A stretch of DNA of 64,000 nt from Escherichia phage WPEC5: the sequence record PV654397.1; one strand, given 5' to 3'. The notes beneath the pieces are model-generated. The model saw nothing but the letters and a program-made list of their open reading frames with translations, ran no database searches and had not been told where the DNA came from. The position numbers and the translations under genes are program-made. Below, one piece after another: positions 6,708 to 6,993 of the stretch (within the stretch, counting starts at the first letter, position 1; each line of letters begins with the position of its first letter).

Positions 6708-6993
6708 TTTAATGTTTCCTTATCAGTGGTTGATGTAAGTATTATACTCGTTTAATTTCTATTGTCAAACTATTTTATCAGGGGAGTTTTTCGTATGTCT
6801 TACTCCTGGACTACTTAACGGGGTTACTTATTTCGTTCCCCGTCCTGATGTAAAACATTATACTTGATTCTAAGTACAATGCAAGTACTTTTTTAAAAAT
6901 AGTTTTCAGTACTTGATAGTACTAGCCACCAGCAAACAATAGATACATTTATGCACCCTGTGGGCTGATTTGTTTCTATGCGTATATAATAGC

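Follow-up and report, generated by a model that had tools for sequence, protein, structure and literature searches.

The window analysed in this study, that is the whole stretch of 64,000 nucleotides from Escherichia phage WPEC5 (PV654397.1), carries its genes on the minus strand throughout its first 22 kb. A strong sigma-70 early promoter (TTGCAAGTACTT...TATAATGTTTTACATC) was repeated about 26 times on the minus strand between positions ~860 and 21300, and the copies as a rule precede a plain GC hairpin (GGGGAAC..GTTCCCC) and then an SD and an ATG. Their initial transcribed sequence, ATCGAGAGGG, was that of the T7 promoter A1. The promoter family was rich in AGTACT/CAGTACTG palindromes, which could be the site of a regulator, and contained an A/T-rich upstream element; its initial transcribed sequence AUCGAGAGGG was identical to that of T7 A1, and its layout resembled the PeSL cassettes of T4-type phages.

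The original prediction had placed two promoters in tandem, with a structured leader between them, in front of each of two unrelated genes, and a diverged copy in front of 14316-14798. A covariance model search of the 64 kb found three copies of the leader element and no more, each on the minus strand. The core model scored 58 bits at 6780-6820, 55 bits at 18271-18311 and 53 bits at 14860-14900, and the next-best match in the 64 kb scored 8 bits. The arrangement was thus present where it had been placed, and the diverged copy was found at 14914-14842. Relative to shuffled sequences, CATCARGACGGGGA matched four times (0.18 expected) and the 32-nt 3' part joined to TTGACA matched exactly twice (0 expected). 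The features of the three copies were as follows.

6857..6884, minus strand: distal early promoter of copy 1 (-35 TTGCAT at 6884-6879, 16-nt spacer, -10 TATAAT at 6862-6857)
6777..6849, minus strand: leader RNA domain of copy 1, 73 nt (fold, core-model match and covariation)
6849-6844 with 6782-6777, minus strand: helix P1 of copy 1 (RNAfold)
6843-6838 with 6823-6818, minus strand: helix P2 of copy 1 (RNAfold)
6817-6807, minus strand: junction of copy 1, UAAGUAGUCCA
6806-6802 with 6787-6783, minus strand: helix P3 of copy 1 (RNAfold)
G6811/U6810/C6809 with C6797/A6798/G6799, minus strand: pseudoknot of copy 1 (covariation)
6741..6768, minus strand: proximal promoter of copy 1, TTGACA-N16-TATAAT (12/12 consensus)
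18350..18377, minus strand: distal early promoter of copy 2, TTGCAA-N16-TATAAT (10/12), predicted +1 at A18342
18268..18342, minus strand: leader RNA domain of copy 2, 75 nt, with the P1/P2/P3 layout of copy 1 (RNAfold and core model)
18232..18259, minus strand: proximal promoter of copy 2, TTGACA-N16-TATAAT (12/12), followed by ATG 18199 of gene 17588-18199
14922..14949, minus strand: promoter of copy 3, TTGACA-N16-TAGAAT (11/12), predicted +1 at A14914
14842..14914, minus strand: leader RNA domain of copy 3, diverged class (core model, BLAST to T7-group phages and fold)

The first base of each of the three copies was the predicted +1 of a strong sigma-70 promoter; all transcription start sites of the window are sequence predictions. 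In copy 1 this was A6849, 7 nt past the -10, a spacing which is the same as that of T7 A1. The distal -35 of copy 1 matched the consensus at only 3 of 6 positions and was missed by a simple promoter scan; the promoter is a member of the 26-copy early family. The second complete promoter was found to be perfect in copies 1 and 2, where it began at most 9 nt past the leader, and in copy 1 its predicted +1 at ~6734 was followed by an SD and the ATG at 6707 of gene 6432-6707. The original prediction had also suggested a dual early/middle promoter unit, a reading that found no support; both tandem promoters are sigma-70 consensus promoters by sequence, like T7 A1 and A2. The genes behind copies 1 and 2 are mutually unrelated. 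Copy 3, the promoter of which lies just past a terminator at 15025-15009, shared the core but not the rest of the layout: P2 was missing, and only a weak promoter-like site (14846-14818, 9/12) was present before the ATG at 14798. The P3 of copy 3 was CCAGU/ACUGG, and its closing helix consisted of GACG/CGUC plus AUCAAG/CUUUGAU. Judged from the sequence, the element lies in sense orientation within the first ~100 nt of a predicted sigma-70 early transcript. A candidate fourth copy at 9330 was rejected; only the promoter-proximal ATCAAGACG was in common, followed by a different motif.

A second family of short non-coding units was also observed in the window. These units contained a strong sigma-70 promoter, a small 5' hairpin and an invariant CCCAYNGGGUGC sequence ~33 nt past the -10, often followed by UGUAUCUAU, and the 5' stems were found to covary (GACG/CGUC, AGUC/GACU, CGC/GCG and UGAG/CUCA). 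Ten copies were present against 0.6 expected.

1415-1426, 3670-3681, 6953-6964, 9309-9320, 10965-10976 and 18531-18542, minus strand: CCCAYNGGGUGC units
16071-16082, 18474-18485, 20362-20373 and 20578-20589, plus strand: CCCAYNGGGUGC units

One such unit sits just upstream of the distal promoter in copies 1 and 2, and the two copies at 18474-18542 are convergent units. The family was found by BLAST in Asteriusvirus and one Erwinia phage only, and by eye also in Munch and EJP2; it had no Rfam match. In addition, terminator hairpins (GGGAUUGACUCCGGUCAGUCCC) contained a -35 TTGACT in the loop or stem followed by TATTAT, because of which each such terminator would also be the promoter of the next unit.

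6994-7021, minus strand: terminator-promoter hairpin with a 10/12 promoter; others at 1455-1495, 3715-3755 and 11010-11050

A related terminator-promoter family was present on the plus strand from 48243 to 63607. Together with the two promoters of copy 1, the terminator-promoter gives three promoters in tandem with spacings of 129 and 116 nt; the spacings of T7 A1/A2/A3 are 128 and 124 nt. Other repeats of the window were ~15 paralogous genes of ~1.2 kb on the plus strand (26660-44000), each starting with MLPFVRMFDYGN, having a GCCAGTACTnnnTACTGGC hairpin and a promoter-like box rich in TATA in front of it, and containing internal repeats (G-x-LY-x-x-G-x-N-x-x-GQLG) which look RCC1-like. Dense, diverged direct repeats of ~170-210 nt (9-12 copies) were found at 48700-51850 and are probably a tandem family of very small paralogous minus-strand genes.

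The element was found to fold at -19 to -21 kcal/mol with z of about -2 to -3 in RNAfold (-20.9 and -2.96, respectively, for copy 1). Both of the hairpins recognised originally (ACGGGG..CCCCGT and GGAGT..ACTCC) formed in RNAfold. An outer helix AUCAGG/CCUGAU, starting from the predicted +1, closes the element into a three-way junction, and base pairing between this junction and the second hairpin's loop gives a pseudoknot. With high confidence, the fold consists of P2, a UAAGUAG-N-C junction, P3, and a helix stacked on P3 which uses the segment past P3. The loop of P3 is UAAG-N'-C-NN-ACGAAAA, and we are equally confident that its G-N'-C pairs with the G-N-C of the junction to form an H-type pseudoknot (PK1) with an A-rich third loop. 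The partner of the segment past P3 is, again with high confidence, the 5' end of the transcript (P1) in the myoviruses and the loop of P2 (PK2) in the T7-like phages.

For the covariation analysis, 42 distinct instances were gathered with a pattern that left the stems and key positions free; seven further sequences that fell outside this pattern were added, and these scored 47-66 bits in the core model. In the core alignment of 32 distinct sequences, 94.6% of the pair cells were standard pairs against 79.8% in shuffled alignments (0/500 reached this value), and with slid partners at most 39% of the cells were paired. Compensatory changes in the aligned relatives, as expected of a conserved leader structure, were found in four of the five P3 pairs (GGAGU/ACUCC, CCAGU/ACUGG, GCCUG/CAGGC, ACUUG/CAAGU and UCCUG/CAGGA) with the loop fixed. 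The middle pair of PK1 was A-U in 21 sequences, U-A in 6, C-G in 3, G-C in 1 and a mismatch in 1; the U-A and C-G states each arose in myoviruses as well as in T7-likes. Within the window this pair was C-G in copy 2 (GUAGCC / UAAGGC) vs. U-A in copy 1, and A-U in copy 3, the same as in T7.

In the alignment of 16 T7-like sequences, a model with P2, P3, PK1 and PK2 contained 10 compensatory pairs against 2.1 +/- 1.3 in shuffled alignments (0/500). PK2 joins the loop of P2 with the segment directly past P3 and was found as GUCAA/UUGAC, GAUUAG/CUAAUC, GUCGGU/ACCGAC, GUCAUC/GAUGAC, GUCAGA/UCUGAC and GUCAAG/CUUGAC. Its 3' strand was the A2 -35 hexamer in most T7-likes, and it covaried equally where no promoter was present there. 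P1 was found by RNAfold with differing sequences in at least seven myovirus lineages (W1-type, copy 3, EJP2, LTH01, Hallingskeid, Munch and L047). P2, present in copies 1 and 2, was missing in copy 3, EJP2, LTH01 and Hallingskeid. The G.U pairs were compatible with the transcribed (sense) strand only, and close relatives differed by a 1-nt indel within the core; the signal is therefore one of RNA pairing, not of coding or of a protein site in DNA. A leader peptide was rejected: an ATG was present in none of the copies, the ATA of copy 1 was gone in copy 2, and the 1-nt core indel separated relatives.

The 901 bases around copy 1 matched 45 phage records at 92-98% identity, nearly all of them from Asteriusvirus, jumbo phages of ~350 kb that infect E. 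coli and Salmonella (such as PBECO4, 121Q and G17). The window represents the early region of an Asteriusvirus jumbo phage and runs co-linear with the G17 left end, all genes of which encode small hypothetical proteins. A 121-nt query found the leader unit at 90-94% identity in Justusliebigvirus (muut, EmilieFrey and outra) and Vequintavirinae (A73, W70, A7_1 and A5-4), ~145-kb myoviruses which are unrelated to Asteriusvirus; over all comparisons the identity in these two groups was 90-99%. In these phages a sigma-70 promoter was positioned so that the +1 is the A of AUCAGG, and the element was followed by a complete promoter-5'UTR-gene unit with a different gene; among these relatives muut alone has the downstream gene of the window. 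The motif was also present in jumbo phages of the Munch/7t3 type, in the Erwinia jumbo phage Hallingskeid and in LTH01 of the Vequintavirinae. In LIMElight, host promoters annotated by the depositors flank the motif on both sides. Scans of IMG/VR and metagenomes with the first pattern found close relatives only. The motif pattern had no match in 185,579 species genomes, and neither the window unit nor T7 498-830 had a BLAST match among 5,426 E. coli genomes, by which a host origin was ruled out. By eye, the diverged class of the element was seen to precede what is apparently one and the same early gene (phrog_27871; product Ala/Lys/Glu-rich, 160-200 aa) in three kinds of jumbo phage: Asteriusvirus, the Munch type and Erwinia Hallingskeid. 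This pairing thus appears to be syntenic and old in jumbo phages.

14316-14798, minus strand: phrog_27871-like gene of the window (by eye)
L014 1358-1945, L015 1374-2000 and L017 1307-1903: phrog_27871-like genes of other phages (by eye)

Copy 3 was found by BLAST to match T7-group phages, including phiA1122, at 91% over 35 nt. In T7 the annotated start of A1 is 498, and the geometry of the promoter is the same as that of copy 1. The parts of the T7 A1 transcript, in an order identical to that of the window, were as follows.

Part 1, AUCGAGAGGGA...UCCC: 5' hairpin
Part 2, CCGGggucaaCCGG: hairpin P2
Part 3, A-UAAGUAGAC-A: after P2 and before P3
Part 4, GCCUG-AUAAGUCGCACGAAAAA-CAGGU: hairpin P3
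Part 5, A-UUGACA: -35 of A2

T7 nucleotides 540-600 were 84-100% conserved in 488 phage records, which span Teseptimavirus, Teetrevirus, Kayfunavirus, Przondovirus, Elunavirus, Limelightvirus, Drulisvirus and other Autographiviridae genera with Escherichia, Klebsiella, Salmonella, Yersinia, Erwinia, Pantoea, Serratia, Morganella and Aeromonas as hosts. The remainder of the A1 leader was completely different between Autographiviridae groups. One core model scored 47-66 bits in the T7-likes and 53-58 bits in the window copies, and the core (the UAAGUAG-N-C junction plus P3 with its UAAG-N'-C-NN-ACGAAAA loop) was present in all three of the latter. T7 and the window share a strong sigma-70 promoter with a transcript starting AUC(G/A)AG, a 5' hairpin of the GGG(G)A...UCCC type, the UAAGUAG-N-C junction, the P3 loop UAAGNCNNACGAAAA and, after the element (in the window, copies 1 and 2), the -35 TTGACA of the next promoter. 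The promoter spacing was ~116-129 nt in the window and 128 and 124 nt in T7.

The T7-likes differ in having a single copy with an extra 5' hairpin behind the first promoter that enters the cell, whereas the window has three copies over 12 kb, one of which, unlike T7, has neither P2 nor a real second promoter. The domain is closed by the P2 loop and the post-P3 segment (often the A2 -35) in T7-likes and by the 5' end in the myovirus versions, and a boxA is located further downstream in T7 but not in the window. We conclude with high confidence that each copy forms an RNA domain in its own right, homologous to the A1-A2 leader of T7-like phages, and, with equally high confidence, that each is transcribed by host sigma-70 RNA polymerase from the +1 of a strong early promoter. 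The distribution beyond the window and the homology to the A1-to-A2 leader of T7, both absent from the original prediction, change the identity of the element. The tandem promoters themselves are the T7 A1/A2 arrangement; the new part is the covariation-supported leader motif, which is apparently undescribed. The searchable literature contained no description of the T7 leader as a structured RNA and quoted the T7 core sequence only incidentally, and older subscription papers could hold one; the leader thus appears to be a widespread, undescribed structured RNA.

Known RNA classes were not recovered at the locus. ARAGORN found no tRNA or tmRNA genes in the window, and Rfam, including riboswitches and small ribozymes, gave no match over the locus at gathering thresholds or at E<=10, nor at E<=1 over T7, phiA1122, Munch, Hallingskeid, LTH01 and A73. 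Sequences resembling boxA in the window were no more frequent than by chance, and the core model showed no similarity to HK022 24000-34000, which contains the put regions.

The reading that we favour, at a probability of roughly 40%, is that the leader domain acts in cis and is recognised by some host factor, which may be RNA polymerase during elongation; the specific target is given a lower probability than the reading itself. Some of the early transcripts would carry the domain at their 5' end. Since nothing stops transcription past the element, we infer, with low to moderate confidence, that RNA polymerase starting at the distal promoter passes the proximal one and goes on to transcribe the gene. 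Recognition would be by a conserved host component, because the loops are invariant across unrelated phage families with only enterobacterial hosts in common, and the leading candidate would be the elongation complex that has just made the domain. The effect may be put-like (anti-pausing or anti-termination) or linked to Nus/boxA, and transcripts from the distal and proximal promoters would then have different fates. The main hint tying the element to Nus-dependent antitermination is a T7-like fragment, L036 (IMG/VR UViG_2030936005_000003), in which the element was found directly upstream of a boxA, CGCTCUUUAACAA; in T7 the boxA is located after A3. The order in L036 may be the ancestral arrangement. 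At L036 4113-4190, a consensus boxA (CGCTCTTTAACAA) was observed ~18 nt past the element, with no promoters between.

Control of translation is unlikely, given that the start codon lies anywhere from ~70 to ~370 nt away. In T7, stabilisation of the mRNA is also unlikely, because cleavage at the RNase III site R0.3 removes the leader. A1 transcripts of T7 continue into gene 0.3; in classical in vitro work, RNA initiated at A1 is still terminated at the early terminator TE and remains sensitive to Rho, so that a strong put-like effect is disfavoured. Deletions of the A1-A3 region of T7 are viable, which counts against a cis-acting leader. The same is true of the second promoter that is nearly always found downstream, expected of an independent RNA gene and unnecessary for a cis leader, and of the fact that only 3 of ~26 promoters in the window bear the element, the downstream genes having no obvious property in common. 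The lack of a boxA in the window and of model similarity to HK022 put argues against the put- or Nus-linked form of the cis model.

Among the other explanations, a trans-acting small RNA or decoy is doubtful, and ranks closest to the cis-acting leader. The distal promoter would make only the ~75-nt domain, released by an endonuclease in the AU-rich stretch, and the freed RNA would bind or sequester a host protein (a nuclease, chaperone or defence factor) while the gene uses its own promoter. The near-constant following promoter suits such a processed, independent RNA equally well, the promoter-element module is autonomous and stands before complete, unrelated promoter-5'UTR-gene units in various phages, and the domain is closed from the +1 to just short of the UP/-35 region of the next promoter. 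Loops that are invariant across phage families, and synthesis in T7-likes from the first promoter entering the cell, point the same way. On our reading of the sequence, the AUAG/UUUG past W1-type domains fits the RN|WUU preference of RNase E; the AU-rich stretch is, however, equally explicable as the UP element of the next promoter. A separate small RNA had been offered by the original prediction, but the element has a promoter and neither a terminator nor any other signal for a 3' end, it lacks a credible second promoter in copy 3 and EJP2 and is there the 5' UTR of the gene itself, and the continuation of T7 A1 transcripts into gene 0.3 is known. Protection or insulation of the 5' end is somewhat less likely again. 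Here the domain would hide the 5' triphosphate end, block the entry or scanning of RNase E and lengthen the life of the distal transcript. In every myovirus version the transcript's first nucleotides are paired in P1, the T7-likes have a 5' hairpin from +2, and the other early promoters of the window all precede a simple 5' GC hairpin, so that 5' structure is a general theme. A simple hairpin would nevertheless suffice, as at the other ~23 promoters; invariant loops and two cross-family pseudoknots are left unexplained, and in T7 the leader is stripped from the mRNAs by RNase III.

A role at the level of DNA, as an A-tract/UP or factor site for the downstream promoter or as a PeSL-like recombination cassette with an incidental fold, is improbable. 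By our own count ACGAAAAAC occupies -46 to -38 of T7 A2, where a proximal UP subsite is located, and the module stands before differing genes in differing phages, as a shuffling cassette would, for which PeSLs are a precedent (PMC2839356). The interval between ACGAAAA and the following -35 is not constant, however (~8 to ~55 nt), and copy 3 has no next promoter. The stems change by compensatory double substitutions with fixed loops, and the sense-strand-only G.U pairs are a signature of RNA; PK2 was found to covary even where its 3' partner is no -35 hexamer (L022, L029, L048 and SalP_792). Very improbable, and the least likely of all, is an attenuator or riboswitch governing read-through into the gene, which had also been proposed. 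The structured leader lies immediately past the promoter, and the pseudoknot with an A-rich loop has the general shape of small riboswitch aptamers. Yet no terminator-like site, that is, no terminator hairpin with a U-tract, was found between the tandem promoters, an expression platform of alternative pairings was likewise absent, a full-strength promoter downstream would bypass attenuation, and Rfam matched no riboswitch or ribozyme even at E<=10.

The preferred cis-acting leader can be extended into a bolder proposal, which we put forward only tentatively and hold to be less probable than the leader itself, though a little above the small RNA. The domain would be a doubly pseudoknotted aptamer, the first RNA of infection and a new class of phage regulatory RNA, compact in form, which binds a conserved enterobacterial machine (elongating RNA polymerase with the Nus apparatus, or a nuclease or defence factor) and has spread between T7-likes and large or jumbo myoviruses by horizontal transfer. 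If true, the long-studied A1 leader of T7 gains a role. Transcription research has relied heavily on the T7 A1/A2/A3 cluster for 50 years, and the A1-A2 stretch of this cluster carries a covariation-supported pseudoknotted fold which is conserved across Autographiviridae genera and is common to T7-like podoviruses and unrelated giant or large myoviruses. The hypothesis of early leader RNAs that act on host machinery is testable in the easiest phage system. For annotation, the element is a recognisable non-coding module which marks the heads of early transcription units and accounts for otherwise odd tandem promoters.

Of the known systems, putL/putR of HK022 are the favoured mechanistic model for the element. 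The put RNA is ~70 nt long with two stem-loops, is made by host RNA polymerase just past an early promoter, and acts without phage proteins (PMC9378689). By analogy, the element may antiterminate as put does. The two show no similarity in sequence or model, and put has no pseudoknot of the type found here, by the description in PMC9378689, and, unlike the element, no further promoter downstream. The PeSL cassettes of T4-type phages are repeated sigma-70 early promoters with GGGG...CCCC stem-loops between small ORFan genes and mediate modular shuffling (PMC2839356). They resemble the 26 promoter-hairpin units of the window and the element module before different genes in different phages. The PeSL stem-loop is, however, a terminator of upstream transcription, whereas the hairpin of the window lies in the transcript of its own promoter, and PeSLs have no conserved loops or pseudoknots and do not extend to T7-like phages. 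The rrn operons differ in that the element has no BLAST similarity to E. coli DNA and the window is without boxA. Their P1-P2 region is nevertheless alike in its two strong promoters, which are separated by ~120 nt and have a leader hairpin and boxA after them, and, as in the boxB-boxA-boxC leader of rrn, a consensus boxA lies downstream of the element in T7 and L036.
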